From IMG/VR virus record IMGVR_UViG_3300045015_000053: DNA of 64,000 bases, one strand, 5' to 3'. The stretch comes from a virus. Taxonomy: Duplodnaviria > Caudoviricetes. The number at the start of each line of letters is the position of its first letter. Positions within the stretch are counted from its first letter, which is position 1. The notes under the pieces are model-generated. The model had not been told where the DNA came from. It did not search any database and saw only the letters and a program-made list of their open reading frames with translations. Shown piece by piece: positions 6,398 to 44,472 of this stretch. A program made the translations under genes and the position numbers.

Positions 6398-6465
6398 GGC
6401 CCGTCCGCTGGTGCGGCGTTGAGGTTTCGACCCTCGACCGAGCAGTCCGATTCTGCTATGGGTCT
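6398..6465 (+). tRNA. non-canonical compact tRNA-like gene, Arg anticodon UCG
   Basis: GGCCCGT|CCGC-TGGT-GCGG|C|GTTGAGG-TTTCGAC-CCTCGAC|CG|AGCAG-TCCGATT-CTGCT|ATGGGTC|T; ATAAATA motif at 6371. Confidence 0.7.
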
Positions 6466-6467
6466 TT

Positions 6468-6692
6468 ATGGGACTTTTCAAACACAGGGTCTGGGACCGT
6501 TCAAAGCAGACGTACTTCATCTTGCGCCGGGGTACGCCCTGGAAGGTCATGGACATGAAGGGCGAACGCACGGTTGCTGACTACCCGGCGTTCCTTTACA
6601 ATGGTCTGTTGGAAGAACGTGTCTGTTTCGCCGCGAGCGACGAGGCAGTTGTCGAGATCATGAAGAAGCACGCCGAGGGGAAGTTCCCGTGA
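6468..6692 (+). CDS. hypothetical protein
   Basis: coupled small ORF. Confidence 0.55.
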   Translation: MGLFKHRVWDRSKQTYFILRRGTPWKVMDMKGERTVADYPAFLYNGLLEERVCFAASDEAVVEIMKKHAEGKFP

Positions 6693-6880
6693 AAGCGAAC
6701 GAACGCAAGATGCACGTCGAGCTTAACAAGCGATGGCTGTCCGAGGACAACCGCCTGCCCCGGTGGAACCATCTGAGGGACCGCTGTGGGTTGGAGCCGC
6801 TGACGCTCGAACAGGCCGCTGAACTGATGGCGGTCAACAAGCAAGTCGATAAGGACATCAGGGAATACTTGGAGGGTTGA
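6689..6880 (+). CDS. hypothetical protein
   Basis: GTGA overlap. Confidence 0.55.
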   Translation: MKANERKMHVELNKRWLSEDNRLPRWNHLRDRCGLEPLTLEQAAELMAVNKQVDKDIREYLEG

Positions 6881-7092
6881 TGAAGAAGTACGTTGCCGTT
6901 TTGAAAGAAGGCAGTGACACGTCAAAGTTTCAAGCGGCAGTTGAAGAGATGGGCGGGGTGGTCCGCGATGCGAACGTCAAATACATCTTGGTCGAACTCC
7001 CCGGCGCGGCCGGCGACTTGAAGAAGCTCCGAGCGATTCCCGAAGTGAGAATCGCCGATACCGTCAAATACGCCAAACCAGCGGGGAGTTGA
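6880..7092 (+). CDS. hypothetical protein (ACT/ferredoxin-like alpha/beta pattern)
   Basis: TGATG overlap; GGAGG RBS. Confidence 0.55.
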   Translation: MKKYVAVLKEGSDTSKFQAAVEEMGGVVRDANVKYILVELPGAAGDLKKLRAIPEVRIADTVKYAKPAGS

Positions 7093-7095
7093 AGC

Positions 7096-7314
7096 ATGTG
7101 GGCTTACAAAGCGGATACGACCGTCTACGTTGAGGAAAGCTGGTACGACATCCTGTTTCAAGGGTTCATCGCTTTCTGGTTCGCTTTTTGGATCTTGATC
7201 GTTGCCGTTTTGTTCTCGCCGTTTGGAGCGGCGTGGGCGGCATACCGTCAATACAGGTACTCAAACTGCCCGCTGCCCGAAACCGAAGTTCGCGAGCGAG
7301 CGCATTTGGGGTAA
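7096..7314 (+). CDS. hypothetical membrane protein
   Basis: hydrophobic segment FIAFWFAFWILIVAVLF. Confidence 0.55.
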   Translation: MWAYKADTTVYVEESWYDILFQGFIAFWFAFWILIVAVLFSPFGAAWAAYRQYRYSNCPLPETEVRERAHLG

Positions 7315-7329
7315 CGCGAGGGCTGTGAC

Positions 7330-7539
7330 GTGAACGAAGATTTCGATTCTTTCGTGGTCTACTACGTCGCTTGGCACGAAGGCGAGTTCAACCTCCAGAC
7401 CATGAAGAAGATGGTGCTGGATGACATCGGCCAAGAGGGTCTGACGAACGCTCTGATCGTTTTCAGAGCCAAGCGTTTGGAGCGTGAGTCGAGGGGCGAC
7501 TACCGCACATTGTTCCAAGCAATGCAGGCGTCACCATGA
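7330..7539 (+). CDS. hypothetical protein
   Basis: coupled ORF. Confidence 0.5.
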   Translation: MNEDFDSFVVYYVAWHEGEFNLQTMKKMVLDDIGQEGLTNALIVFRAKRLERESRGDYRTLFQAMQASP

Positions 7540-7832
7540 AGCCCGGCAAGTACATCTGGAAGGCCAAGCACCACGCGGTCATTCACAACGGCAACGAGTA
7601 CAAATTGTTCTCGCCCGCGCCACGCATCTTCTCTTCGAGCGTATACGACATCAACTCCTACTCGGACTTTGAGTACGGGATCAACTCGCGGTTGGTCCTG
7701 AGAATGAACAGATTCTTTGTCACGGTTGACGACCGCCATCTTCAAAAATGGGTGTGCGGCGGCTCGGTCGCTTATCCGACAGGATGGAACGGTGACGCGA
7801 ACGGGGTGTATTTCGGCGGAAGGGTGAACTGA
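7536..7832 (+). CDS. hypothetical protein
   Basis: ATGA overlap. Confidence 0.55.
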   Translation: MKPGKYIWKAKHHAVIHNGNEYKLFSPAPRIFSSSVYDINSYSDFEYGINSRLVLRMNRFFVTVDDRHLQKWVCGGSVAYPTGWNGDANGVYFGGRVN

Positions 7833-8113
7833 TGAAGTGGGAAGTTTCAATTCCGCCGCCGTCCGCAGCGAGGATGGCGGGAACCGGGAAGCTGTTTGTC
7901 CAGGTGTCTGACGGGTGGTGTGCGCACCGACCCGAACAACTCTTCTTCGCCCCCGAACACACGACCGTCCAGTTCGACGTGGGCGACGATTACGAGTGGA
8001 TCGGTGCGAGGACGACGATGGACGGGCCGAACTTCACGGTTTGGATCGAATACAATAACTCAACTGGCAGTCGCCAAGAGAAGATCAGGCTCGTGCCTGG
8101 GAAGGTGGAATAA
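7832..8113 (+). CDS. hypothetical protein
   Basis: TGATG overlap. Confidence 0.55.
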   Translation: MKWEVSIPPPSAARMAGTGKLFVQVSDGWCAHRPEQLFFAPEHTTVQFDVGDDYEWIGARTTMDGPNFTVWIEYNNSTGSRQEKIRLVPGKVE

Positions 8114-8433
8114 TGGGTCAAAAGCAACTGACACGCGAACAGATCATCAACAGGATCATCGGTTTCGATTTCTTGGAGTGGTACGAGCGGCTTCTCGACA
8201 TCAAGGCCGTAATTGATCTTCCAAAACCAAAGAACGGCGTGTATCATCAAGGTCCAGTGACAAAGCCCAAACCGGCTTCGATCTTTGAAACGGGAACTGT
8301 CGGATTCGCTCCGACCGATGAACCACGTCGAAAGTACCGGCACAGGTTCGATTCCGTGTCAACGGAAAGCGAATTCGGGGACACGAATGAGTGGAACAAG
8401 CGGTCGAAAGCGAAAAAACTTGGAAAAGGCTGA
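8113..8433 (+). CDS. hypothetical protein
   Basis: TAATG overlap. Confidence 0.55.
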   Translation: MGQKQLTREQIINRIIGFDFLEWYERLLDIKAVIDLPKPKNGVYHQGPVTKPKPASIFETGTVGFAPTDEPRRKYRHRFDSVSTESEFGDTNEWNKRSKAKKLGKG

Positions 8434-8504
8434 ACCTTTGGCGTACTAGATACGTCAAAGTTGTGGTCACACCTGCGGGCAGGTTTTGTCCCTCCCGCAT
8501 CGAA

Positions 8505-8573
8505 GCCCCTGCCAGCGGTCTGGCTCTATCCCTCCGAAGGATGGTTGCGAAAGTCCGACTCTTTCCAGGGGTA
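8505..8573 (+). tRNA. non-canonical compact tRNA-like gene, Arg anticodon CCG
   Basis: GCCCCTG|CCAG-CGGT-CTGG|C|TCTATCC-CTCCGAA-GGATGGT|TGC|GAAAG-TCCGACT-CTTTC|CAGGGGT|A. Confidence 0.7.
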
Positions 8574-8577
8574 TTTT

Positions 8578-8610
8578 GTACCTCCGAAGCAATTTTTGCT
8601 TCGGAGGTAC
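8578..8610. repeat. 14-bp perfect inverted repeat covering the GGAGG upstream of the HNH gene
   Basis: GTACCTCCGAAGCA-ATTTT-TGCTTCGGAGGTAC. Confidence 0.85.
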
Positions 8611-8622
8611 TCGTTTACAGGT

Positions 8623-9099
8623 ATGAAAACATGCCACAAATGTTGCAAGTGCAAAGAACTTGAACAGTTCCCGATCAACCGTAGTCGCAAAGATGGTCGT
8701 AGTGAAACTTGTTTACTCTGTAAACGAGAGTACAATCGTATCCACTACAAAAACAATCGCTCTTATTACATGGACAAGGCTCAAGCGGCAAGAGATCGTT
8801 TGAAGGAGGCTTTTCGTCAATTGAAAAGCGAGATGAAATGCAGTCGTTGTCCAGAGACTCATGTTGCGGCTTTGCAATTCCATCATACCGATCCTTCTAA
8901 GAAGGAATTCTCCATTTCGATGGCGGTACAATCCAATTGGTCAAAAGACAGAATCATGAATGAGATTGCTAAGTGTGAAGTTTTGTGCGCCAATTGCCAC
9001 CTCAAACATCATTGGAGCGAACGGCATGCTTCCGACCTCCCGATGGAAGTTACGGCAAACGCTCATCAAGGTGTACCAGAGCAAGATCGAACACCTTGA
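8623..9099 (+). CDS. HNH homing endonuclease
   Basis: N-terminal CxxC Zn module; KCSRC...LQFHH...KCEVLCANCHLKHH. Confidence 0.85.
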   Translation: MKTCHKCCKCKELEQFPINRSRKDGRSETCLLCKREYNRIHYKNNRSYYMDKAQAARDRLKEAFRQLKSEMKCSRCPETHVAALQFHHTDPSKKEFSISMAVQSNWSKDRIMNEIAKCEVLCANCHLKHHWSERHASDLPMEVTANAHQGVPEQDRTP

Positions 9100-9313
9100 G
9101 GGCGGCATACGTTCGGCTCTGGGGATCGTCGGGGATCTGATCGACGCATCCGACTACGAAGGCGCGGCGAGCATTCAAGTCGTAATCGCCCAAGACGAGC
9201 AAACGCTCGCCGAGTTGAGAGAAAAACTTGAACTCGTCAGTGACGAGGACGAGTTCAACAAAATGGCAGACCACTTTGAGGGTGAAGTGGAAGAGGAACC
9301 GTTCCTCGAATAG
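9026..9313 (+). CDS. hypothetical protein
   Basis: ATG at 9026 overlapping the HNH 3' end in another frame. Confidence 0.55.
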   Translation: MLPTSRWKLRQTLIKVYQSKIEHLEGGIRSALGIVGDLIDASDYEGAASIQVVIAQDEQTLAELREKLELVSDEDEFNKMADHFEGEVEEEPFLE

Positions 9314-9315
9314 AA

Positions 9316-18384: not shown

Positions 18385-18522
18385 ATGTGCAAGAGGAAGC
18401 AGGCCGTTCGCCGTCAGTTCCGTGACGGCACCTTCAAACGCGACAAGTTTCGTTGCGTCTGTTGCGGCTTCGCGTCAACTCCCGAACGTGCCGAGAACGA
18501 GCTTGACGCTCACCACATTACT
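18385..18522 (+). pseudogene. 5' half of an interrupted HNH endonuclease
   Basis: not in the track: MCKRKQAVRRQFRDGTFKRDKFRCVCCGFASTPERAENELDAHHIT. Confidence 0.7.
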
Positions 18523-18548
18523 TGTTCAGGCATGTTGCTATATATGGC

Positions 18549-19553
18549 ATGAAAAATTTTCGTTCATGGTTTGAAGAGAACCAAGGTTTGAATGGTTGGG
18601 AAATTCACTCCCATTTGACCAAAATGCGTCGAGACTCGCCGGAGGATTTCCGAAATTATGGACTACCGTATACACAGGGCATGATTGTTCACAATGACGG
18701 AAATGTCTATGAAAAGAAATGGGATGCTAGTTTAGACAGGAAAAAATGGAGTCATGTAGATGACTCTACTCCCAAAAAGACTCCTGAAAATGAAGAGCAT
18801 TTCGCCCGTGACAAATACGGTCATGAGGTAGTAAATCACCATGAATTGTATAGGAAAAAAGCAATTGAAGAAGTTTCAGACAAGGTGAAGATCGTTGGAG
18901 GTCACGATCTGAGTCAGATTAACGGCCGAGTTCCCAGAGGAACCAAACCATCTCCAGATAAAGTTTGGGAAACAGCAATACAGTACGGTACTAACCTGAG
19001 AATGCTTTCAAATGATAAAGGCGAAGTAATTATTGGAGGGGCAAACGCTCATATGTATCTTCCCAATAGATATACGTTTTCTGGTAGCGGTGAATTATTC
19101 TACATGCGTTGGTTCATTAATCCAGATTCAAAAATGATAACTCTCAGTTCAACCGATGTAGGTAGCAAAGACGAAACAGTTAAAGCGGAGTTTTGGAAAC
19201 GACCTGACAAGTTCATAAATTTGACGTTGCGATCTCTTGTGGATTCGGGGTTGGTTAATGGAGGCTGGAGGGTGGAAGCGGGTACGCAGGCTCATGCTCT
19301 TGGTGCGCCATTGAAGACGGTTGGAGATTGGTTAGGTTTTAAGTCAAAAGCCGACATTGATGCTGATCTCGCTCGAAAAGCACAAGAAAAATTCGACAGG
19401 GACGCCGAGTATAGAGCCACTTGGCCAGCGAGACGGTATATGAGAGAATTAATGCGACGAGGTGAAGGCCCGTGGCACTTACCTCGGGGGGAAGCTCACC
19501 AATGGTCATTTGCCAAATATGTCAGTCTTAGAGAAAACATGGTGCTATCATGA
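18549..19553 (+). CDS. AT-rich hypothetical protein, putative virion internal protein
   Basis: MKNFRSWFEEN N-terminus; CTATATA at 18538; visibly lower GC than the flanks. Confidence 0.7.
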   Translation: MKNFRSWFEENQGLNGWEIHSHLTKMRRDSPEDFRNYGLPYTQGMIVHNDGNVYEKKWDASLDRKKWSHVDDSTPKKTPENEEHFARDKYGHEVVNHHELYRKKAIEEVSDKVKIVGGHDLSQINGRVPRGTKPSPDKVWETAIQYGTNLRMLSNDKGEVIIGGANAHMYLPNRYTFSGSGELFYMRWFINPDSKMITLSSTDVGSKDETVKAEFWKRPDKFINLTLRSLVDSGLVNGGWRVEAGTQAHALGAPLKTVGDWLGFKSKADIDADLARKAQEKFDRDAEYRATWPARRYMRELMRRGEGPWHLPRGEAHQWSFAKYVSLRENMVLS

Positions 19554-19592
19554 TGTTATGGAAAAGATCGTACTGTTTTGTTTGGTTCTGAA

Positions 19593-19626
19593 ATAAAAAG
19601 CCCCGAGTCATCTCGGGGCTTTTTAT
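19593..19626. terminator. bidirectional intrinsic terminator
   Basis: ATAAAAAGCCCCGAG-TCAT-CTCGGGGCTTTTTAT. Confidence 0.85.
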
Positions 19627-19680
19627 TACGCTTTGACCACGATTTCTGTCTTGAAGTCGTTGAGTCCGCTGTTCTTCAGT

Positions 19681-19881
19681 CTTCGCGACGAGATGCCCAA
19701 CGGCGGGTACGTCAAAGAGAATGGCGTGACGCTGTGCAAAGGTGATGACGGAACGTCTTGCCACGAGAAGGCGGAAATGGTATTACAGGGGATCGACATT
19801 CCGGGGTTCTCCCCGGACGACCTCTACACCCTGATCGGTTCCGACCGGGACCGAGCATTCCAAGAGAGCGAGAAGTTATGA
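19681..19881 (+). pseudogene. 3' half of the interrupted HNH endonuclease
   Basis: RDEMPNGGYVKENGVTLC...CHEKAE continues the HHIT fragment. Confidence 0.7.
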
Positions 19882-20747
19882 CGACTGCCATCGCCAGCCC
19901 CGACCGCATGACCGACGACGAGTTCAAGAGCTTCTTCCTCGAAAACTCCGTCAGCCCGAACGACGACGACGATCCCGCCGCCGTTCTCAAGAACTACATC
20001 CGCACGCGCAACGAGACGATCTTCAAGGCGACCGAACTCGGCATCGGCGAAGCCGGCCTCCAAGAGATCAAGTCGAAGGCCGCGAACGCCTTCCTCAAGC
20101 GGTGGATGATGCTCCGGTTCGCCACCGTCGATCTGTCCTTCACCGACCGCAAGTGGTGGCTGAAACTCGAACGCGACACCAACGGCGTCAAGGTCGTTCA
20201 GGCATCGCACGAACCCATCGACGTGACCGGCGATCCGGCCTTCTTCACCGTCGCCGAGATCAACCGCTTCTTCAAGGTCGAGACGAACGCCGAGGAGTTC
20301 GCGTTCGGCAAGAAGATCAGCGACAAAAAGGCTCACCAAAGCAATGGCGGTTTCGCTCCGACACGCAAGAACGGCGGCATGCCCCGCACTAACCTGACCA
20401 TTTCGGCGGTTCTGCCGGACGGGATCGGCCAGAAGCAGATGAAGAAGGCTCAGGTGGCAATCGGCCACAAGCACTTCGCCCGCGCCGTCTGCTACTGCCA
20501 CGGCATCGATCTCGAAGCCGATCTGGGCCGCACACGGTGGGATCGGCGCGACTCAACCGTCTCGGTAATCTGGGGGCCGAACGCGGACGTTCTCAGCTTC
20601 ACCCAGACGCCGCCGCGTCCGGCCGGTGACCCCGCCATCGTCATCGACATCGGCGAGGAAACGTACCTGCTGGACTTCTACGACACGCCGGACGAACTCC
20701 CGATCAGCAACCTGATTCGCGAGTTCAGCGAAGGGAAGCTTCGCTAA
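19878..20747 (+). CDS. hypothetical protein
   Basis: ATGA overlap; strong GC3 bias. Confidence 0.75.
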   Translation: MTTAIASPDRMTDDEFKSFFLENSVSPNDDDDPAAVLKNYIRTRNETIFKATELGIGEAGLQEIKSKAANAFLKRWMMLRFATVDLSFTDRKWWLKLERDTNGVKVVQASHEPIDVTGDPAFFTVAEINRFFKVETNAEEFAFGKKISDKKAHQSNGGFAPTRKNGGMPRTNLTISAVLPDGIGQKQMKKAQVAIGHKHFARAVCYCHGIDLEADLGRTRWDRRDSTVSVIWGPNADVLSFTQTPPRPAGDPAIVIDIGEETYLLDFYDTPDELPISNLIREFSEGKLR

Positions 20748-20796
20748 AATATGAAGGACGCCCGACATTCGGGCGTCCTTCAAGCTAGGAGAAGTT

Positions 20797-21075
20797 ATGC
20801 GGAAAATCATCGTCGCCTTGATTTTGGCTCTGGTGTTGGCCTGTCTGATTGGTTGTGGTCCACAACCACCGGCCGCTCATGCCGAGCCGGTGCAAGAGGC
20901 CAACATCACGAAAATGTTGCCGCACGGTTATACCAACCTCAAAAAACTGGGCAACCAGTGGTTCTCATACGACCTTGAGGTCGGCGGCAAGAAACGTCAA
21001 TTCATGGTCCGGTATTCGACTGGCTCGCACGGAGAGTACAGTCTTGCCGTGACCGAACTACACGAAGGGAAGTGA
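20797..21075 (+). CDS. putative lipoprotein
   Basis: signal peptide with lipobox-like LIGC. Confidence 0.65.
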   Translation: MRKIIVALILALVLACLIGCGPQPPAAHAEPVQEANITKMLPHGYTNLKKLGNQWFSYDLEVGGKKRQFMVRYSTGSHGEYSLAVTELHEGK

Positions 21076-21078
21076 CTT

Positions 21079-21916
21079 ATGGGAGCCGCAATCGTTGAAG
21101 GCGGTGTTGACACCCGTCAAGTAGGATGGGACAGCATCCGGGTGCTGTCCTCGACCGACAAGAACGTAAAGAAGTACGTCTTCGAGAAGGGGGATGCCGT
21201 CGCCGAGTCGGTACTGTACAAGTACCCCGACTACGAAACCCGCACCGTCATCTGCTGCTCAACTCAGAGCGGCTGTCCGGTCGGCTGTCGGTTCTGCGGC
21301 GCGGGCGACAACTTCGTGCGGTCGCTGACCAGCGAAGAGATCTTCTCGCAACCGAAGCGGTTGCTGGATGACACGGGTGTCGATCCGACGAAGATGGGCC
21401 GACTCCAGATCATGTTCATGAGCATGGGCGAGCCGTTGCTCAACCAGAACAACTTGATCCCGGCCCTGTACCGTCTGCACGAGAAGTACCCGAACGCCGC
21501 CCTGTTGATTTCTACCAGCGGCCCGCGAGTCGGTTACGGTCGAATCCGCGACGTGTCGGTGGCGATCCCGACCATCGGCCTCCAGTTCTCGATTCACGAA
21601 AGCACGGACGAGGCGCGAAACAAGCTGATCCCGTTCGAGAAGAAGCTGACGCTGACAGAGATCGCGGCCGAGGGCAAGCTGTGGTACGAAGCAACGGGCC
21701 GCACACCGTTCTTCAACTACTGCGTCCACGACAAGAACAACACGCCAGAAGACGTGGAACGGCTCACCGCCCTGTTCGATCCCGACATCTGGCAGGCGAC
21801 GATCTCCGTGATCTGCGAGCGTGACGAATACGTCGCGGCGGCGAACGCCCGTCAGAAGGCTCTGGCAGACGATTTCCGGGGTGGTCTGATGAGCAAGGGG
21901 TTCCGCACTCGCGTGT
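21079..21916 (+). pseudogene. RlmN/Cfr-like radical SAM protein, C-terminally truncated at an inversion breakpoint
   Basis: CCSTQSGCPVGCRFC (CxxxCxxC) and MSMGEPLLN; after RTRVF the frame reads antisense sequence and no GxCGQL motif follows. Confidence 0.7.
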
Positions 21917-22340
21917 TTGAAGATGCCGAACGACGCGCCGGATTCGAGGCCGAGCATCTCCCGCTTCACGAAGTCGAGAGCGTTGCGTACCGCGTCGTGG
22001 CAAGCGTCCTGACGGGTGTGGGGGTCCATGTTCAGGACGTTCCAGACCTCGCTGATCTGGCCGATCCCGATGCGACTGTAGAAATCCAGAGCCGCCACAA
22101 GGATCGCACCCTGTTCGGCCGTGACTTCCAGCGTGAATTTCTTCTCTTCCGGCATGATCGGCCTCACACTTTGGTGCCGCGAGATTTGAGGAACTTGACG
22201 GCCTCGCCGTCCCACTTCTCCAAGTTCATCGCCCGCAGCCTCTCCACGTCAATGAAGGCGTTGGTGTAAGCGTGCGGGTGCTTGACGAACGTTTCTGCTA
22301 CGGCCCGCGAAACCTCGCGGGCGTACAACTCGCCGTTCAA
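21917..22340 (-). other. ~420-bp inverted block containing two gene fragments
   Basis: flanked by TTGAA/TTCAA; the minus strand encodes ...LNGELY...GTKV* and MPEEKK...GASFGIF. Confidence 0.7.
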
Positions 22341-22647
22341 CAGCAAGGTGCCTGAGCGGTACAAGACCGCGTGGGATCTCCAGCAGGTGATTCGGCACGT
22401 TCTGGCGTGGGACGCGAACCCGGAAGGCGGGTTCGGTGTCAATTTCCACGAGCCGCTGAAATCGGGCAAGCACGGCCTTGCTACAATGAAAGTATCCGAA
22501 CAGTGGCTGCGGGAGATGGCCGAGAAGGAAGACAACGGCATCATCTCTGTCGGCGGTCTGGTAACAAGAATGAGGCAAGCCAATGATCCCGCCGTCAATC
22601 CTGATGCTGGACATGCTGAAACCGAACGGAAAACCACCGAAGAATGA
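22341..22647 (+). pseudogene. 3' part of the gene whose 5' part lies in the inverted block
   Basis: NSKVPERYKTAWDLQQVIRHVLAWDANPEGG joins in frame to GASFGIF on re-inversion. Confidence 0.65.
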
Positions 22648-22738
22648 ACCGTGGTGGCAGACCGCGATCACGGTCGTACTCCTGACGGCCGTGCTGATCG
22701 GCACGCTCGTCGGCGCGATCTACTTGATGAAGCATTGA
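22613..22738 (+). CDS. 41-aa membrane peptide
   Basis: not in the track: MLKPNGKPPKNEPWWQTAITVVLLTAVLIGTLVGAIYLMKH. Confidence 0.5.
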   Translation: MLKPNGKPPKNEPWWQTAITVVLLTAVLIGTLVGAIYLMKH

Positions 22739-22739
22739 G

Positions 22740-23186
22740 GTGAACGTGAGCATACGGTCCTACGATCTGAGCGGCGATCAAGCCGCCGAACTGATTCTTG
22801 CCCTCAACGGTGACGCAGAGAAACGCGAGAAATGGTTGAGGCAGTTACGCAAGTGGGTCGCCTACCGTGATCTCAAGCTGAAGATCCTCGGTTTGACGGA
22901 GAATTGGCTCAAAGCCTTCGGTTTGAAGAAGGGCGTTCACGTCGGTCGGGAAGATTGGCAGAGCGACGAAGAAAACCTTCTGGACTGGGTGTACTACCAG
23001 ATGGAGTACATGAGTGGCTTGACATGGGACGAAGCGACGAAAAGTGTGATCATCAACAAGTACGCTTCGAGCCGCCCGCTGCTGCGGGACGAAGAGACAA
23101 AAGAACTCTTGGAATTTTTGACGTTGGAAATTGGCAAGGATACTGTATATAATGAACTGACGGCCCATCCGCCGGCGCGGTGTTAG
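22740..23186 (+). CDS. hypothetical protein
   Basis: 148-aa ORF. Confidence 0.6.
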   Translation: MNVSIRSYDLSGDQAAELILALNGDAEKREKWLRQLRKWVAYRDLKLKILGLTENWLKAFGLKKGVHVGREDWQSDEENLLDWVYYQMEYMSGLTWDEATKSVIINKYASSRPLLRDEETKELLEFLTLEIGKDTVYNELTAHPPARC

Positions 23187-23230
23187 AGCTTCTACCTCTG
23201 ACTGGACGGGTTCAACTCCTGTATGGGCTT
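23162..23230 (+). tRNA. non-canonical compact tRNA-like gene, Arg anticodon UCU
   Basis: GGCCCAT|CCGC-CGGC-GCGG|T|GTTAGAG-CTTCTAC-CTCTGAC|TGG|ACGGG-TTCAACT-CCTGT|ATGGGCT|T. Confidence 0.75.
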
Positions 23231-23237
23231 CTTGACT

Positions 23238-23308
23238 GCCGCTATCGTATAGTGGGATTACCCTTGTCTTGTAAACAAGTGACCTCAGTTCGATTCTGAG
23301 TAGCGGCT
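23238..23308 (+). tRNA. tRNA-Thr(UGU)
   Basis: acceptor GCCGCTA/TAGCGGC; CTTGT-CTTGTAA-ACAAG; T-loop TTCGATT. Confidence 0.9.
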
Positions 23309-23319
23309 CTGATTGATTT

Positions 23320-23390
23320 GCCAGCATCGTATAGTGGTATTATGCTTGTTTCGTAAACAAGTGACCTGAGTTCGATTCTCAGTGCTGGCT
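23320..23390 (+). tRNA. tRNA-Thr(CGU)
   Basis: acceptor GCCAGCA/TGCTGGC; CTTGT-TTCGTAA-ACAAG; near-duplicate of the preceding tRNA. Confidence 0.9.
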
Positions 23391-23471
23391 CTGTACCCCT
23401 CCCGTGGATAGAATCGCGGGACCATCACCTCGGTCTAAACCACCGAGGTGATTCTTTTGGTAGAATTCATC

Positions 23472-23681
23472 ATGGCGCGACAGCACTTCAAAGATCCGAG
23501 CATCAGTCAACGAAACGACGCGAGTTGCATCAACAACAAGCGTGGCATGGCTCGTCGCGCCAAACGCAAGTCAGGCAAAACCGACCGCCAACTACTGAAG
23601 AAGGCTCTCGATGAAATTCAAGATCAAGAAGTCCAATCCGGTTCCGGGTGTGATTCACCTGCTGTTCAAGAACCAGTATGA
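23472..23681 (+). CDS. small basic hypothetical protein
   Basis: ATG at 23472 after an 11-bp hairpin. Confidence 0.4.
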   Translation: MARQHFKDPSISQRNDASCINNKRGMARRAKRKSGKTDRQLLKKALDEIQDQEVQSGSGCDSPAVQEPV

Positions 23682-24264
23682 GACGTGTTCCACGTTCATG
23701 CGGCTCCAAGAGTTCTATGAGTCGCCGTTCAAGCAGATTCGCGGCAAGCTGTTCTCGCTCGAACAGTTGATGGACCTGTACGCCAAGCAGCAGGGCAACT
23801 TCACTTACACCTGCGACTGGGGCGGCTTCAACGTGCCGGGCCACGTCGTTGACGAGTTCTTCCGTCTTTACGACGGGCAGTTGCTCGAAAAAGAGAAGGA
23901 CTTGAGGGAACTGGTTAAGGACAAGGCCGGCAAGATTGCGGTCGGCTCTAAGTATTACGTCATCGGGATGTACGGCGAAGAATGTCTGGATCACGAACTG
24001 GCCCATGCGTTATACTACCTCAATGACGACTACCGCCGTCAAGTTAACGGCCTAGTCAAAGCGTTGCCGGAATCGGTAAAGTCTGCCATCGCGAAGTGGC
24101 TCTTGGACAAAGGGTACTCGAAGCCGCTGATCGTGGACGAAACCAACGCCTACTTGACGACCGACGATCAGGAAGAGTTGACGAAGCGTTTCGGCAAAGC
24201 GGTCGGCAAGCGGTACGCGAAGTACGAGCCTTTCAGGAGAGCGTTCGATGACGCAAAGTTCTGA
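23611..24264 (+). CDS. HExxH-containing hypothetical protein
   Basis: LDHELAHALYY; strong coding bias. Confidence 0.7.
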   Translation: MKFKIKKSNPVPGVIHLLFKNQYETCSTFMRLQEFYESPFKQIRGKLFSLEQLMDLYAKQQGNFTYTCDWGGFNVPGHVVDEFFRLYDGQLLEKEKDLRELVKDKAGKIAVGSKYYVIGMYGEECLDHELAHALYYLNDDYRRQVNGLVKALPESVKSAIAKWLLDKGYSKPLIVDETNAYLTTDDQEELTKRFGKAVGKRYAKYEPFRRAFDDAKF

Positions 24265-25084
24265 GCCGTGGCGTGACGCAGTCACCTGTTTTGAGGACGG
24301 GGTGATTACCCAACACGAGTTCGTCAACACCATGTTCGATCTGTTGACGGTCGAGAACGTTTGGGAGATCGGCAAGCAGATCGACAAGAAGTATTTCGAC
24401 ATGCTCGCGGCGCGGCTCTCCGAACTGCCCGACGACGACGAGGGCTGGTCGAAGATGCGACGTTCCCACATGGGGAGCTTCACCGGCCCGGTCACCCAGA
24501 ACGAAGACTTCTCTGCAATGCGGCGTGGTGTCGAAGCTTTCCGCCGTTACTGTCTGATCCCGACAAAAGCACAAAAGAACTGGAAGTGCCTGTGCTATCT
24601 CTGCTTCCCCGAAGCGGTGGAGTACGGCGAACTTATCCCAGACATGTTTCTGTTCAAGGACGGCGACACCTACGGGTTGATGATGCAGTCCGGGCATCGC
24701 GGGGACTACATACTCTTGTTCCCAGAAAAGCCGACGCCGGACCCCGATCCTGAGTGTGTCCACGAATACGACGAGATCGCCACATCCGAGCGTTGGGTGG
24801 ATGTGGTGGCCGACTGGCAGGAGAAGTTGAAGCTGTTTCCGTCCGAGGGGCATCATCTGGTAGAGTCCTGCAAAGAGGCCGGGTGGAGCTACAAGCACGG
24901 CCACATGCTGTTCTGGCTGTTCGACCGCGCCGGGAAGATGCTGGAGGGTCAGGATGTTTCCGGTCAAACCGCAGGATCTGGATCTGCTTCCGAACCGGAG
25001 TGCAGAGTTGAGGGAGAAGATTCTGATCGGGCATGTGGTTCGCCCGATCAAGGTGGAGTGGTTGGACCTGAAGGAGCCGACTAA
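24248..25084 (+). CDS. hypothetical protein (3' end possibly frameshifted into 24954..25139)
   Basis: 278 aa; the last ~40 codons look less gene-like than the overlapping frame. Confidence 0.6.
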   Translation: MTQSSEPWRDAVTCFEDGVITQHEFVNTMFDLLTVENVWEIGKQIDKKYFDMLAARLSELPDDDEGWSKMRRSHMGSFTGPVTQNEDFSAMRRGVEAFRRYCLIPTKAQKNWKCLCYLCFPEAVEYGELIPDMFLFKDGDTYGLMMQSGHRGDYILLFPEKPTPDPDPECVHEYDEIATSERWVDVVADWQEKLKLFPSEGHHLVESCKEAGWSYKHGHMLFWLFDRAGKMLEGQDVSGQTAGSGSASEPECRVEGEDSDRACGSPDQGGVVGPEGAD

Positions 25085-25139
25085 GCCGAAGAAGGGTTTG
25101 CCTCCGATGCGGTCCTTAGACGACGAGTGGGAGTCATGA
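24954..25139 (+). CDS. small protein ending RSLDDEWES
   Basis: GGAGGG upstream of the ATG; shared C-terminal motif. Confidence 0.5.
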   Translation: MFPVKPQDLDLLPNRSAELREKILIGHVVRPIKVEWLDLKEPTKPKKGLPPMRSLDDEWES

Positions 25140-25444
25140 GCAAATTTCTCGAAGAAGCCAAAGAGCTTGAGAAGCGTTGGGGCCAGTCCAAACTCATGAG
25201 CGGTATTGAAGAATCTTGCCGCCGACAAATGATCAAGCAACTGCTTGAGAACCAAGCGGCGATGAATGCTGCGACTTCTGCTCCAGACGCTTCGGAGTTA
25301 AAGCGGATAAAAATTCCGCTCATTCGGCGTCTGCAAGGGCCACAAATGTCGCCTTCTGATCCTATACTGTCGGGACAGGGGACGACCAAGCCGAAACGCA
25401 GAAGGCCGGTCATCCGTGATCTCGATGACGAATGGGAAAGCTGA
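25136..25444 (+). CDS. protein resembling the T4-like major capsid N-terminal segment, ending RDLDDEWES
   Basis: KRWGQSKLMSGIEE...MIKQLLENQ...KIPLIRRL resembles the start of gp23-type MCPs; too short for a capsid protein. Confidence 0.45.
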   Translation: MSKFLEEAKELEKRWGQSKLMSGIEESCRRQMIKQLLENQAAMNAATSAPDASELKRIKIPLIRRLQGPQMSPSDPILSGQGTTKPKRRRPVIRDLDDEWES

Positions 25445-25452
25445 GGCATCAA

Positions 25453-25770
25453 ATGGGCGGTAGTTGCAACATGGTCGGTGGTGTTTCGGCCAAAGAACAC
25501 GCGACAAACGTGTTCTTGAACAAAGACACCGCGTTCGACAAGGCGCGGGACGCACACGAACAGGCCAGTCGCCTCGAAGACGCCGCTCGGAAAGAGTGGC
25601 ACGAGGCGAAAGAGGCGTTGGCGAAGGCTGTCGGGTACAAGGCCGGCGATCCGCCGGTTAGCATCGTCGTTGGCGACGGCCGTTTGATTCGGCTGTACAC
25701 TCGCCGAGAGGATCGGTGTGGGCGTGACCGCGAGCAAGAGGTTTCCGTCTCCATCGAGAAGGTCGTCTGA
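25453..25770 (+). CDS. hypothetical protein
   Basis: GAGG RBS. Confidence 0.55.
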   Translation: MGGSCNMVGGVSAKEHATNVFLNKDTAFDKARDAHEQASRLEDAARKEWHEAKEALAKAVGYKAGDPPVSIVVGDGRLIRLYTRREDRCGRDREQEVSVSIEKVV

Positions 25771-25979
25771 TGTCCGAGCCGATCAACGTCGATACGCCAG
25801 AGAAACTCCTCGAAATCTTCGGCAGTGCCTCGTTCATGCCGAAGACTTTGCTGGATACCGACCCGTTGGTGCGGTTCGACACCGAGCGTTCGATGGACCC
25901 TGCGATCCTCGCTCAGTTCCTACACAATTCGACCAAGCGGCCGAAGATGCGTGATCTGGACGACGATTGGTTTTCTTGA
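25770..25979 (+). CDS. small protein ending RDLDDDWFS
   Basis: TGATG overlap. Confidence 0.6.
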   Translation: MSEPINVDTPEKLLEIFGSASFMPKTLLDTDPLVRFDTERSMDPAILAQFLHNSTKRPKMRDLDDDWFS

Positions 25980-26017
25980 TTGAAAACATTCACATCTCGG
26001 ACTATATTACTTGACAT

Positions 26018-26086
26018 GCCCCGGCCGCTAGTGCGGTGCCGAGTTTCCTAAACTCAGCTTGAGAGGAGCGTAACCTCTCCGGGGTA
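26018..26086 (+). tRNA. non-canonical compact tRNA-like gene, Arg anticodon CCU
   Basis: GCCCCGG|CCGC-TAGT-GCGG|T|GCCGAGT-TTCCTAA-ACTCAGC|TTG|AGAGG-AGCGTAA-CCTCT|CCGGGGT|A; T-loop degenerate. Confidence 0.65.
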
Positions 26087-26953: not shown

Positions 26954-27661
26954 ATGCACACAACAAAAACACGTTTGAGACGTTGGTTGAAAGAAAGGTC
27001 GTCTTTTCTTGCTGCGATCAAGAGCAAGGGAGGCAAGTGTCAGAAATGTGGCGAAGACCACATTGCAGTTTTGGATTTTCATCATCGTGATGGTGACGAG
27101 AAAGAAGCACATGTTTCTTCGCTCGTTAGGAAGCCCAAACAAAAAGAAAAACTAGCTGCCGAATTGTTGAAATGCGATCTTTTGTGTTCAAATTGTCACC
27201 GCAAAGAGCATTTTGACAAATCAAAGTGGGATGCTCACGCCGAGGAAATTGAGCGTAGAGCAACTGGTTGGAAGCCAAAACGCGATCCGGTTTGCAAACG
27301 TGTATCCAAAGATGAGATTTCAAGTATTCGTCTTTGGATTGGCGAAGGATTGTCTTTTGAAAAGATGGCTAACCGTCTTGGTAGGAACCCAAGCGGGATG
27401 CGACGATCTGTCGTGAGACTTTACGAAAAAGGATTGCTCCCTGAATTTGCCTCTTATATTAGACCTAAAAGGGCAAAGAAGACGCGGGCCGATCAAAAAG
27501 AAGCAAAGCGTCTTTGGGAAGAGGGTCATACTGTTGCCGAGATAGCTTTGCTTCTCGGATGTGGCATTCGTGCAGTTTATTCTGCACTAAGGGGTATCAA
27601 AAATGGCGAACAAGAATCTCTTCAAGTCGAAGTCTCCTCTGGCGAACCTCAAGCCGTGTAA
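26954..27661 (+). CDS. HNH homing endonuclease with C-terminal HTH repeats
   Basis: KCQKCG...VLDFHHR...KCDLLCSNCHRKEH, then HTH-like segments; lower GC. Confidence 0.85.
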   Translation: MHTTKTRLRRWLKERSSFLAAIKSKGGKCQKCGEDHIAVLDFHHRDGDEKEAHVSSLVRKPKQKEKLAAELLKCDLLCSNCHRKEHFDKSKWDAHAEEIERRATGWKPKRDPVCKRVSKDEISSIRLWIGEGLSFEKMANRLGRNPSGMRRSVVRLYEKGLLPEFASYIRPKRAKKTRADQKEAKRLWEEGHTVAEIALLLGCGIRAVYSALRGIKNGEQESLQVEVSSGEPQAV

Positions 27662-29396
27662 TGCGGTGAATGAGGCTGGAGGAAAGGCGTATAAGCTGTC
27701 TGACCGTCAGGCTCTTAGCCAGTACGTCGCGACGGGCTGCTTCAACAGCACCTACTACGTCTCTGCGGAGACGCAACTACAGACCGTCCTCGAACTCGCC
27801 AACAAGGTCGAGCCGGGGTTCCTCGCGCGTGCGGCCCTGTACGGACACCAGAAGTCGTACATGAAGGACGTGCCGGCGTTGCTGGCGGCGGTACTCGCGT
27901 CCCGCGACGAGAAGACGCTGAAGAAGGTGTTCTCGAAGGTGATCGATTCGGGGAACATGCTGCGCAACTACGCACAGATGATCAAGAGCGGCGTGACCGG
28001 CCGCAAGTGCCTCGGTACGGCCAGCCGCAAGCTGGTCGGCAAGTGGTTCAGCGACCGCACCCCGGAGAACGTGTTCCACCAGAGCATCGGGAACGACCCG
28101 ACGTTGGGCGACGTGATCCGCATGGCGCACGCGAAGCCGGCGTCCCCGCAGCACGCGGCACTGTTCGCGTACCTGACCGGCGCAAAGGTCGAGACGGTCG
28201 AGGGGCGTAAGCTCCTGCGGACCCCGTACCTCGATGAGTCGAAGGTGCAGAAGTACCTCGAACACCCGTTCGACAACCTGCCGGAACTGGTGAAGCAGTT
28301 CGAGGCGTGGAAGGCTGACAACAGCCAGACGATGCCGAAGCTGAACTTCCGGTTCCTCGACGGCGCGGGCAAGCTCACTCTGGACCAGTGGAAGGAGATC
28401 GTTCGCAACGCGAACTGGCTGACCACGCTGAAGTCGCTTCAGTCGTGGGCGCGGCGCGGCGTCTTCGCCGACAAGGACATGACCAAGCTGGTTGCCGACC
28501 GGCTGCGTAACCCGGAACTGGTGAAGAAGGCCCGCGCCTTCCCGTACCAGATCATGATGGCGTACCTCGCGACGGACGCCCCGTCGCAGTACACCACCAA
28601 CTGGGGCCGCGCGTCCTCTTCGGAGGCAACGCCGGTGCCGCCGGAAGTCAAGAACGCACTTCAGGACGCGATGGAAGTCGCGACCCAGAACGTTCCGAAG
28701 ATGTCGGACGACGCGGTCTACGTCTGCCCGGACGTATCCGGCAGCATGTCGAGCGGTTCCGTCACGGGCAACCGTGGCACGGCAACCTCCCGCGTGCGGC
28801 CAATCGACGTGGCGGCACTGATGGCGGCGTGCGCCCTGCGTACCAACCCGAACGGCGAGGTGATCCCGTTCGAGGGGGCGGTGGTAGACGTGAACCGCAT
28901 CCGGCTCAACAGCCGGGACAGCGTCATGACGAACGCCGAGAAGCTGTCCAAGATCGGCGGCGGCAGCACGAACTGTGCCGCTCCCCTGCACCTTCTGAAC
29001 CAGCGGAAGGCGAAGGGCAAGGTCGTCATGTACATCTCCGACTACGAGTCGTGGGTGGACACCGGAACCGCCGCTCGCTACGGCAGCGGGGCTGCGGACA
29101 TGCTCGCGGAGTGGGAGATCTTCAAGAAGCGGAACCCGGACGCGAAGCTGATCTGCATGGACATGACCCCGCGTACCACCGCGCAGGTCACGACCCGGAA
29201 GGACATCCTTCAGGTCGGCGGGTTCAGCGACAACGTGTTCAACGTGGTGGACTCGTTCCTCCGTGCGAACGACAGCGAGGACTACTGGGTCAAGCTGATC
29301 GAAAGCATCGACCTCGACGCGCCGGTTGACACCCGGCCGGCGAAGGCCGAGGCGTCGGAAGAAGACGTTCCGTTAGCCGAAGCCGTGGAGGAATAA
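27603..29396 (+). CDS. TROVE-domain Ro60/Rsr-like RNA-binding protein with vWA domain
   Basis: NEAGGKAY...LSQYVATGCFNSTYY...YMKDVP...FPYQIMMAY...CPDVSGSM...ISDYESW. Confidence 0.92.
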   Translation: MANKNLFKSKSPLANLKPCNAVNEAGGKAYKLSDRQALSQYVATGCFNSTYYVSAETQLQTVLELANKVEPGFLARAALYGHQKSYMKDVPALLAAVLASRDEKTLKKVFSKVIDSGNMLRNYAQMIKSGVTGRKCLGTASRKLVGKWFSDRTPENVFHQSIGNDPTLGDVIRMAHAKPASPQHAALFAYLTGAKVETVEGRKLLRTPYLDESKVQKYLEHPFDNLPELVKQFEAWKADNSQTMPKLNFRFLDGAGKLTLDQWKEIVRNANWLTTLKSLQSWARRGVFADKDMTKLVADRLRNPELVKKARAFPYQIMMAYLATDAPSQYTTNWGRASSSEATPVPPEVKNALQDAMEVATQNVPKMSDDAVYVCPDVSGSMSSGSVTGNRGTATSRVRPIDVAALMAACALRTNPNGEVIPFEGAVVDVNRIRLNSRDSVMTNAEKLSKIGGGSTNCAAPLHLLNQRKAKGKVVMYISDYESWVDTGTAARYGSGAADMLAEWEIFKKRNPDAKLICMDMTPRTTAQVTTRKDILQVGGFSDNVFNVVDSFLRANDSEDYWVKLIESIDLDAPVDTRPAKAEASEEDVPLAEAVEE

Positions 29397-39877: not shown

Positions 39878-40591
39878 GTGATGCCTACCAAAACCGAATA
39901 CCAGAAACGCAAACAAAACAATCTCTGTTTACGTTGTGGTAAAACGCCATTGGATTCCAAAAACGTTTGTCAAAAGTGCATAGACAAGGCGATGGCGAAG
40001 TATGCCGCAAAAAAACAAGCAAAAGTTTGTGTAAATTGTAGTCGGCCCGCTCCAAATGGAGCCAGATGTGTCGAGTGCGCAAAGGTCCACAAAAAAGTTG
40101 CAGATCGAAGACGGATTACAAAAAGAAAAACATCAATTTGTTTGATTTGCCCGACTCAAACAAATGGCTCTGCCTATTGTGATTCTTGTTTGGCGAAGAA
40201 TAGGGCCAAGTGTCGCCGGAAGCGAGAATCGGGATTGTGTCGCAATTGTTCCAAAAAGGCTATTCCGGGGAAAGCAAGATGTGAAGAATGCACGCAGACA
40301 AATCGCGAGAGCATTCTCAGACTCAGGGATAAAGTGTTCGCTGCGTATGGAGGGGCAAGATGTAATTGTTGTGGAGAAACGACAGTAGAGTTTTTGGCAT
40401 TAGATCACATAAACAACGATGGTGCCGAACACAGACGAAGTTTGCGTGAGAACAGCGTCTATCGTTGGGTTAGTAAAAACGGGTTCCCTGCCGGTTTTCA
40501 GGTACTGTGCCACAATTGCAATTGGGGCAAACATATTTGTGGTGGAGTCTGCCCACATCAGAGGAAAATTCATGTCGAACATCATCAATGA
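39878..40591 (+). CDS. HNH endonuclease with tandem Cys-rich repeats
   Basis: multiple CxxC...CxxC units; RCNCCG...LALDHINNDG...QVLCHNCN. Confidence 0.85.
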   Translation: MMPTKTEYQKRKQNNLCLRCGKTPLDSKNVCQKCIDKAMAKYAAKKQAKVCVNCSRPAPNGARCVECAKVHKKVADRRRITKRKTSICLICPTQTNGSAYCDSCLAKNRAKCRRKRESGLCRNCSKKAIPGKARCEECTQTNRESILRLRDKVFAAYGGARCNCCGETTVEFLALDHINNDGAEHRRSLRENSVYRWVSKNGFPAGFQVLCHNCNWGKHICGGVCPHQRKIHVEHHQ

Positions 40592-43657: not shown

Positions 43658-44472
43658 ACACAACACAAAGAGTACGAATCAAGAAAGAGAATGTTGAAGT
43701 CGATGGTTTCGTGGGGCTGGAGTCCACGATCAAGCACCCCGTTTTCGGTCGCAGTCCTGTTGACATCATCGTCCCGTTCCACGGGCAATACAAGCGACTC
43801 ATTACCTTGATCGAGAGCGTTTTGAGGGTGCGGAGCAACCCGTATTTGCTCACTCTGGTGGATGACGGTTCGCCCAATCCGGGCTTCCTCAAACAACTGG
43901 AGAAAGTCCCCCAACTCAACCGGATCAGGTTGGATGAACAAGTCGGTTTCGGCGCGGCTCTACAGGCCGGCTTTCAAGCGACCAAGCAACCGTTCGTCAT
44001 GTTCATGCACAGCGACTGCGAAGCCCTCGACCCTTCTTGGATGTTGAGCCTCGGTCAAACCCTGATCGAACTAGAAGAAAAAGGCGTCGGGATGGTTTCG
44101 GCACGCTCGGACAATCCGTTTTGTGATGACACGCGGTTTGAAGGGAAGCTGAATTCTACCTCCGAACACGTCATTCTTGAATCGGGCGAATCCATGCCGC
44201 TCTACTGCGCCATGTGCCGACGCGGACTGTTCAACAAGATCGGAGGGTTCATCAAGAGCTATCCGTTCGCAATGTACGAGGACCAAGAGTTGTCGTACCG
44301 AATGGGCGTCCACGGCGTCAAGCAGGCGATCAGCGGGACCAGTTGGATCAAACACCACGCCAATGCCACTATTAGTGAAGTTTCGCGATCTAACCCGTTG
44401 GCTCTGGGGCAGATGGAGAAGAACTACGACCGCTGTGTCGCGGACATGAAGGCTTGTTTGCCCAAAAAGTGA
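43654..44472 (+). CDS. glycosyltransferase family 2
   Basis: VDIIVPFHG...LVDDGS...GFGAALQAG...FMHSDC. Confidence 0.85.
   Translation: MNTTQRVRIKKENVEVDGFVGLESTIKHPVFGRSPVDIIVPFHGQYKRLITLIESVLRVRSNPYLLTLVDDGSPNPGFLKQLEKVPQLNRIRLDEQVGFGAALQAGFQATKQPFVMFMHSDCEALDPSWMLSLGQTLIELEEKGVGMVSARSDNPFCDDTRFEGKLNSTSEHVILESGESMPLYCAMCRRGLFNKIGGFIKSYPFAMYEDQELSYRMGVHGVKQAISGTSWIKHHANATISEVSRSNPLALGQMEKNYDRCVADMKACLPKK

Follow-up and report, generated by a model that had tools for sequence, protein, structure and literature searches.

The tRNAPyl of Ca. Methanomethylophilus alvus, which belongs to the delta-N PylRS class, works on bacterial ribosomes. Its cloverleaf has no connector before the D stem, a 4-nt D loop, an anticodon stem of 6 bp with one unpaired base, and a 3-nt variable loop (PMC7609411). 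Mammalian mitochondrial (mt) tRNASer(UCN) and the tRNAPyl of Methanosarcina and Desulfitobacterium likewise have a short connector and a small D loop, with an anticodon stem of 6 bp and a variable loop of 3 nt, and mt-tRNASer(UCN) keeps both G18G19 and T-psi-C (PMC7609411). All known bacterial tRNAs have been stated to be canonical (PMC11551756), and in 42,109 bacterial genomes 0.2% of tRNAs have an anticodon stem that is not 4 or 5 bp long (PMC13092985). Here we analyze four short tRNA-like genes with the Arg anticodons UCG, CCG, UCU and CCU, found in a 64,000-nt stretch (hereafter the window) of the Caudoviricetes record IMGVR_UViG_3300045015_000053, and trace their fold through related phages and through collections of viral and prokaryotic genomes. 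The compact phage tRNAs to which they belong are a distinct, conserved and covarying class that escapes the Rfam tRNA model and, in many cases, ARAGORN. A literature search found no description of compact phage tRNAs; the compact fold is known from the tRNAPyl and mt types, and what appears from the sequences to be new is its use in sense-codon phage tRNAs, with whole isoacceptor sets made compact.

Compact folds in the window and on its source contig

The letters at the four loci (Table 1) agree exactly with a preliminary description of the window, including the anticodons and the four T loops. Each anticodon is presented in a 7-nt loop with U33 and A37. The fold proposed there, with no connector, a 4-bp D stem, a 4-nt D loop and a 6-7-bp anticodon stem, also emerged as the best solution of an exhaustive threading over 0-2 connector nucleotides, 3-5-bp D stems, 3-11-nt D loops, 0-2 spacer nucleotides and 5-7-bp anticodon stems. 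Read as acceptor stem / connector / D stem / D loop / spacer / anticodon stem / variable region / T stem, the best threading of Arg-UCG, Arg-UCU and Arg-CCU is 7 / 0 / 4 / 4 / 1 / 7 / 2-3 / 5, the 7-bp anticodon stem of Arg-CCU including one C-A mismatch; that of Arg-CCG has a 6-bp anticodon stem with a flanking U-U. In all four copies the connector nucleotides U8 and N9 are absent, the variable region spans 2-4 nt and the T arm 5 bp, and the compact threadings, with 0-1 mismatches, outscore every canonical alternative with two connectors and a 5-bp anticodon stem. The minimum free energy and centroid structures from RNAfold are the compact cloverleaf for Arg-UCG and Arg-UCU, and nearly so for Arg-CCU. 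Compact tRNAs retain the 7-bp acceptor stem, the 5-bp T arm, a 7-nt anticodon loop with U33 and a purine at 37, and G18G19; Arg-CCU is the exception, with A18 in its D loop and a divergent T loop. The Arg identity element C35, together with G36 or U36, is present in all the window Arg anticodons, and likewise in ACG and GCG elsewhere on the contig. CCA is not encoded in the genes and must therefore be added post-transcriptionally.

The expectation that standard tRNA scanners would miss these loci held only in part. The Rfam model RF00005 reports none of the four at its gathering score (29 bits), nor at E<=10 on 2-3-kb stretches, while the neighboring canonical Thr tRNAs score 59.9 and 61.4 bits to the same model. 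ARAGORN, on the other hand, reports two of the four (UCG and UCU).

The suggested likeness to tRNAPyl and mt-tRNASer(UCN) was confirmed by comparing the threadings with the published folds (PMC7609411). M. alvus tRNAPyl is the closest described fold, and, as in the phage tRNAs, a single nucleotide precedes its lengthened anticodon stem. It is an archaeal tRNA with a CUA anticodon read by PylRS, whereas the phage tRNAs have sense anticodons, for Arg, Ala, His and others. Moreover, unlike tRNAPyl, they keep G18G19, a mostly TTCGAYT T loop and the identity marks of standard synthetases; PylRS does not appear to be involved, although no search aimed at it was made. The mt-tRNASer(UCN) and the tRNAPyl of Methanosarcina and Desulfitobacterium have one connector nucleotide where the phage compact tRNAs have none, and they are organellar or archaeal, with one specialized tRNA each, whereas the compact phage tRNAs make up an entire isoacceptor family and occur in viruses that infect bacteria. 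With canonical bacterial tRNA-Arg the compact tRNAs share the 7-bp acceptor stem, the 5-bp T arm, the anticodon-loop pattern, C35 with G36 or U36 and, outside the window genome, an A after G19. Nucleotides 8 and 9, A14/R15/A21 and the 5-nt variable loop of canonical tRNA-Arg are missing from them, and their anticodon stem is 6-7 bp long. A further point of comparison is provided by phage tRNAs proposed or shown to escape nucleases, namely the mycobacteriophage anticodon-loop variants and the T5 tRNAs facing PARIS or retron effectors. In those tRNAs the sequence of the anticodon loop or stem is altered within a canonical cloverleaf (PMC10264068, PMC11464382, PMC11555353), whereas the compact tRNAs combine a canonical anticodon loop with an altered core.

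The window corresponds to bases 105123-169122 of a 188,369-bp IMG/VR viral record (G000 in Table 1), for which CheckV estimates a completeness of ~37%. Near-identical DNA was found only in lake-water metagenome runs, all of them DNA and none RNA. An exact-word search of metagenome contigs for a continuation of the contig gave no match, and the INPHARED phage collection contains no close DNA relative. The contig carries at least 50 tRNA genes, together with genes for PrkA, SpoVR, Ro60, an RlaP-domain protein and a PARP-like protein, and all six Arg codons are used by the phage.

The tRNA family, initially described as four genes forming a dedicated Arg class, proved to be both larger and less specialized. 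On the same contig, an Arg(ACG) gene that ARAGORN misfolds refolds perfectly as the compact architecture, and a tRNA-Ala(CGC) has the same fold with G3:U70 kept. A covariance model of these six tRNAs (the four window Arg genes, Arg-ACG and Ala-CGC) was used to search the contig, and revealed an Arg(GCG)-like copy with a disrupted D arm, a tRNA-His(GUG) with an 8-bp acceptor stem, i.e. G-1:C73, and odd Trp copies. Ala-CGC, His-GTG and a Trp thus share the fold of the Arg genes within one genome. The Arg set of the contig comprises UCG, CCG, UCU and CCU in the window, plus ACG and the GCG-like copy, and no canonical tRNA-Arg was found in the 188 kb. A tRNA-Trp(CCA)-like gene of 64-67 nt (G000:C1 94870-94936) combines a compact core with the anticodon loop TGCCAGT, which places a G at position 33; either its function is doubtful or its decoding is unusual.

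Relatives, covariation and distribution

The nearest named relative is Myxococcus phage Mx1, whose Ro60 protein is 41% identical by tblastn. In this complete, cultured genome, Arg tRNAs occur in compact form only: Arg-ACG, Arg-CCG and Arg-CCU lie in tandem, and an aberrant Arg-UCU is found separately (Table 1). Mx1 also carries a compact Ala-UGC, with G3:U70 kept, and a compact-ish tRNA-Cys that overlaps an annotated hypothetical coding sequence on the opposite strand. These compact tRNAs are unannotated in the GenBank record OR576727.2, in which no tRNA-Arg is annotated across the inspected tRNA-bearing region of 41.0-70.6 kb. The genome paper reports 22 tRNAs by tRNAscan-SE and ARAGORN (PMC10720576); run on 38-70 kb of the record, ARAGORN gave 37 tRNA genes, compared with the 22 in the paper and record. 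A BLAST search of the compact tRNA arrays against cultured phages returned nothing useful. An alignment of the two Ro60 proteins, from the window genome and Mx1, led to 19 IMG/VR loci, whose contigs include G001, G002 and G007 (Table 1). Across the relatives, Ala, Gln, Met/Ile(CAT), Trp, Thr, Val and Cys tRNAs are compact too, so that the notion of an Arg-only class does not survive.

To model the class, a covariance model (R2) was built on seven 68-nt members of four genomes, aligned with no gaps, and used in place of an earlier one (R1), whose MAFFT alignment had a gap inside the T stem. The preliminary description had noted that the stems covary between copies, and among 20 compact tRNAs from six phage genomes 22 of the 23 pairs do change on both sides. 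Standard pairs fill 97.0% of cells in this set; shuffles reach 63.5% and slid registers 33-46%. The same 23 pairs come out of RNAalifold, whose covariation term is -9.6 kcal/mol. In a wider set of 98 distinct sequences, 95.5% of cells are paired, compared with 34-54% in slid registers. The D-stem pairs that abut the acceptor stem (8:19 and 9:18 in compact numbering) are formed in 20/20 and 98/98 sequences, with CG/GC and CG/UA variants. The sixth anticodon-stem pair is likewise formed in 20/20 (UA in 12, CG in 8), and the seventh in 70% of the 20 sequences and 60% of the 98. The alignment was fitted to the model, which favors structure; the threading and the single-sequence folds are independent of the model.

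These data bear on the possibility that the genes are relics under relaxed selection, decaying tRNA-Arg genes whose D arms collapsed independently. Deviant copies do exist: Arg-CCU with its T loop and C-A mismatch, the Arg-GCG-like copy with its disrupted D arm, and the Arg-UCU of Mx1. However, the architecture is kept, with compensatory changes in 22 of 23 pairs, across distant phages (the Ro60 proteins of the phages that share it are 41-53% identical) and across 98 distinct sequences, and collapse of the D arm would not lengthen the anticodon stem in step. The relic explanation is largely refuted by the covariation, and we give it next to no credence.

To gauge how widely the class occurs, a degenerate Arg-specific pattern for the compact architecture was scanned over IMG/VR and over 185,579 prokaryote genomes. 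The IMG/VR scan matched at least 119 stretches, and on the 80 IMG/VR loci listed R2 gave 102 matches at E<=1e-7, at G+C contents from 41% to 77%. Among these listed matches the Arg anticodons are UCU (29), ACG (22), CCU (11), CCG (11), UCG (10) and GCG (3), and the non-Arg members are compact Ala-UGC (5, all with G3:U70), Thr, Val and Trp, and a one-connector Cys. Threading identified 84 zero-connector Arg tRNAs in 58 of the 80 listed viral loci, of which ARAGORN called 37. In prokaryote genomes, R2 matches occur in only 7 of the 80 loci listed, and several of these seven are short contigs of metagenome-assembled genomes with multiple matches, e.g. a 27-kb Polyangiales contig with five. Given 58/80 listed viral loci against 7/80 listed prokaryote loci, the compact Arg class is strongly virus-enriched.

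Arginine identity and probable decoding

The sequence evidence makes it probable that the four genes encode genuine phage Arg tRNAs, which would decode CGN and AGR codons during infection and share a conserved, virus-enriched architecture. A20 is a determinant for arginyl-tRNA synthetase (ArgRS) in E. coli and T. thermophilus. Of 80 distinct compact Arg tRNAs from outside the clade of the window genome, 65 have an A directly following the first GG of their D loop, and ten more read GGGA; compact Arg D loops elsewhere are thus nearly always NGGA. At this position compact Ala tRNAs have G in 5/5. This Arg-specific A fits a retained A20 determinant of ArgRS. Other identity marks are kept as well, namely G3:U70 in every compact Ala, G-1:C73 in compact His and U1-A72/G73 in compact Gln. 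The anticodon loops (CUUCUAA, CUACGAA and similar) have Y32, U33, A37 and A38 throughout, and match those of E. coli tRNA-Arg. Of 32 loci with compact as well as canonical-length Arg tRNAs, only 3 have an anticodon common to the two kinds, which therefore complement each other. Together, the retained identity marks and complementing anticodons point to ordinary decoding.

Several observations weigh against this interpretation. The runs in which the sequence occurs are all DNA runs. The Arg share among the matches is biased upward by the Arg-specific pattern and by a model made from Arg and Ala sequences. The claim that the class has no A20 stands for the window genome, whose five Arg copies (TGGT, CGGT, CGGC, TAGT and CGGT) lack an A, and falls for the class at large, in which an A still follows G18G19 in ~75 of 80 compact Arg tRNAs of other genomes; the window genome therefore lacks the A20-like base that nearly all other compact Arg tRNAs retain. 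Two of its Arg copies have U73, and Arg-CCU has both a non-canonical T loop and a C-A mismatch. The missing A, the U73 and the defects of Arg-CCU mean that some copies could be poor ArgRS substrates. Moreover, as the contig represents an estimated ~37% of the genome, canonical Arg tRNAs could lie elsewhere.

The missing A could alternatively reflect a natural orthogonal pair, in which the compact Arg tRNAs of the window genome lost A20 because a phage mini-ArgRS of ~435 aa charges them by a host-independent route. We consider this unlikely. In its favor, the Arg D loops of the window genome are uniquely without the A, and an ArgRS-like protein of 431-452 aa, with HVGH and KMKSR motifs and a DALR domain, is encoded by the relatives G001, G002 and G011. 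This family counts at least 294 proteins of 385-475 aa, located on large contigs that look viral, and its profile can be aligned to solved ArgRS structures from profile position ~54-58 onwards, equivalent to ArgRS residues 105-130. Approximately 55 residues precede the Rossmann fold, compared with 105-130 in solved ArgRS, which would leave no room for a full N-terminal domain that reads the D loop; the absence of that domain is, however, suggested by alignment lengths. Against the pairing, the 188-kb contig has no ArgRS-like gene by Pfam (PF00750, PF05746), tblastn or profile search. A block comprising PTH2, HNH, (ArgRS-like), release factor and RlaP genes is common to the window (34.9-40.9 kb; G000 139994-146056) and to L336, a relative with 52% G+C. 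At the syntenic site in the window genome, only ~1 kb separates the HNH gene from the release factor gene. Furthermore, in phages with a mini-ArgRS (G001, G011 and G053) the GG is still followed by A. An ArgRS of any kind is encoded on only 2 of 49 carrier contigs; Mx1 and 47 of these 49 other carriers of compact tRNA-Arg have none, and the mini-ArgRS was accordingly rejected as a general partner of compact tRNA-Arg. Two candidate ArgRS homologs for the window genome, P0005 and P0011, were rejected as well, being located on other phages with 40% and 52% G+C.

A wider proposal, which we regard as doubtful, treats the compact tRNAs as a separate, all-helical, tRNAPyl-like phage architecture, maintained to decode sense codons and arginine codons above all, that would be unseen by, or independent of, host factors that read the tRNA core (defense nucleases, modification enzymes and quality control); the window lineage would then have lost A20 and become the orthogonal substrate of a phage mini-ArgRS.

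The presence of Ro60/TROVE and RlaP-domain genes in the same window raises a different question, whether the RNAs are non-decoding mimics that act as decoys for a tRNA-Arg anticodon nuclease of the colicin D type, or as ligands or cofactors of Ro60 and the RNA-repair genes. Phage tRNAs that counter anticodon nucleases are documented (PMC10264068, PMC11464382, PMC11555353). However, a decoy or Ro60 ligand needs no G3:U70, G-1:C73, A20-like base or anticodons that complement the canonical set. Y RNAs of the YrlA-like type have a long Ro-binding stem formed from their 5' and 3' ends and no anticodon arm, whereas the compact RNAs are closed cloverleaves with a 7-bp acceptor closure, a full anticodon arm and no extra Ro-binding stem; the Rfam Y RNA model has no match in the window at its gathering score. 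In addition, most carriers were picked by criteria other than Ro60. The Ro60-ligand and decoy ideas put forward in the preliminary description thus gained no positive evidence, and the identity marks and complementing anticodons favor decoding. We consider the mimic explanation very unlikely, although a nuclease-resistant decoder and a decoy can both hold at once.

If the compact RNAs are indeed decoding tRNAs, their architecture suggests how they might work. Connector nucleotides 8 and 9 are gone from the compact core, as are most D-loop residues and half of those in the variable loop; the D stem abuts the acceptor stem, and the anticodon stem has grown to 6-7 bp. Watson-Crick helical stacking would replace the tertiary layers of the canonical core (8-14-21, 15-48 and 26-44), with the distance from anticodon to elbow roughly kept. 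G18G19, the T loop, the 7-nt anticodon loop (Y32, U33, A37, A38) and the acceptor stem remain canonical. The RNAs would be expressed, receive CCA and be charged with Arg, in most phages by the host ArgRS, which would read the retained A after G19 plus C35. We tentatively suggest that the compact core has been kept because it is free of features that canonical tRNA cores offer to the host factors, or phage shut-off factors, by which they are bound or cut, yet is still accepted by synthetases. The tolerant synthetases would be those with identity sets in the anticodon and acceptor stem (Arg, Ala, Met, Trp, Thr, Gln and His), which would account for the amino-acid spectrum. The dominance of Arg would follow in part, since single substitutions at positions 34 and 36 can take one compact ancestor to every Arg anticodon with its identity kept.

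Were decoding by these RNAs to be borne out, they would constitute a natural, widespread and conserved class of 67-70-nt tRNAs at work in bacterial cells, and bacterial ArgRS, AlaRS and HisRS, EF-Tu and ribosomes would have to tolerate sense-codon tRNAs with a tRNAPyl-like core. Current counts of phage tRNAs would be systematically too low, as illustrated by the 22 published tRNAs of Mx1 and by the 37 of 84 compact Arg tRNAs called by ARAGORN. The class would also supply a concrete candidate for a difference between phage and host tRNAs in the tRNA arms race, and ready-made compact scaffolds for orthogonal tRNA engineering. Mx1 and M. xanthus form a cultured system suited to testing compact tRNAs.

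Genomic setting and further observations

The positions of the compact tRNA genes and of associated features are collected in Table 1. Arg(UCU) is the first gene of a predicted Arg-Thr-Thr tRNA operon with a terminator-like end. The majority of neighboring open reading frames have no Pfam match and offered no hint of a function.

Table 1. Compact tRNA genes and associated features of the window, its source contig (G000) and related phages. D and T loops are as threaded; bit scores are to R2.
Feature	Record	Position	Strand	Remarks
Compact tRNA-Arg(UCG)	window	6398..6465	+	68 nt including discriminator U; D loop TGGT, T loop TCCGATT; 71.1 bits; called by ARAGORN
Compact tRNA-Arg(CCG)	window	8505..8573	+	69 nt; D loop CGGT, T loop TCCGACT; G1-U72, A73; 60.6 bits; missed by ARAGORN
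Compact tRNA-Arg(UCU)	window	23162..23230	+	69 nt; D loop CGGC, T loop TTCAACT; 56.8 bits; called by ARAGORN
Compact tRNA-Arg(CCU)	window	26018..26086	+	69 nt; D loop TAGT, T loop AGCGTAA (A54...U58 variant); 41.3 bits; missed by ARAGORN
Sigma-70-like promoter, TTGGAA-18-TATAAT	window	23124..23153	+	putative, consensus match; ends 9 nt before the Arg(UCU) 5' end
Two canonical tRNA-Thr (UGU, CGU)	window	23238..23390	+	ARAGORN, RF00005; directly 3' of Arg(UCU), same predicted transcription unit
Intrinsic-terminator-like hairpin	window	23424..23452	+	11 bp then T run; closes the Arg-Thr-Thr unit
Sigma-70-like promoter, TTGAAA-17-TATATT	window	25980..26008	+	putative, consensus match; ends 10 nt before the Arg(CCU) 5' end
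Ro60/TROVE gene	window	27603-29396		
RlaP-domain gene	window	40419-42683		
Compact tRNA-Ala(CGC)	G000	82813-82880		
Compact tRNA-Arg(ACG)	G000	84468-84535		
Arg(GCG)-like copy	G000	84539-84609		
Compact tRNA-His(GUG)	G000	85265-85333		
Compact tRNA-Ala(UGC)	Mx1	43750-43818		
Compact-ish tRNA-Cys	Mx1	48887-48955		
Compact tRNA-Arg (ACG, CCG, CCU)	Mx1	51522-51736		
Aberrant tRNA-Arg(UCU)	Mx1	56328		
Compact tRNAs	G001 (340 kb)			Arg-ACG, CCG, CCU, UCU and Ala-UGC
Compact tRNAs	G011			found via its ArgRS-like gene; Arg-ACG, CCG, UCU, CCU; Ala; Met/Ile(CAT)
Compact tRNA	G002			Gln(CUG) with U1-A72/G73; Arg tRNAs short (70 nt) with two connectors kept
Compact tRNAs	G007			Met/Ile(CAT) and Trp; Arg tRNAs canonical
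ArgRS-like gene	G001	L047:805-2115		
ArgRS-like gene	G002	L048:1321-2616		
ArgRS-like gene	G011	G011:C1:43614-44927		

Five bases 3' of tRNA-Arg(CCG), at window 8578-8610, lies a 13-bp hairpin (GTACCTCCGAAGC / GCTTCGGAGGTAC), one arm of which is a copy of the 9-mer CCTCCGAAG from the Arg(CCG) anticodon loop (8530-8538).

T loops of the form ATCGAAA, ATCGTAA or AGCGTAA replace TTCGAnT in several tRNAs (Glu, His, Lys and Arg-CCU), with the 54-58 pair swapped (A54...U58). They occur on the source contig at G000:C1 68159-68369 and 84328-84401, in the window at 26018-26086, and in the relatives G001 and G011; ATCGAAA matches the T loop of eukaryotic initiator tRNA.

In Mx1, 4.7 kb upstream of the Ro60 gene, lies a 112-nt element (52126-52237; L008:7212-7323) that could represent a tRNA-like or Y-RNA-like molecule. 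Within a 7-bp acceptor-like closing stem it combines a compact D arm with a pair of separate T-arm-like hairpins (GGTGGG TTCGAAT... and AGG TTCGATT CCT).

Of the 20 clade members, 13 have G1-U72 as their first acceptor pair, among them most copies of the window genome. This pair is retained even in the two-connector Arg tRNAs of G002, and is rarer among the wider IMG/VR compact Arg tRNAs (19/80).

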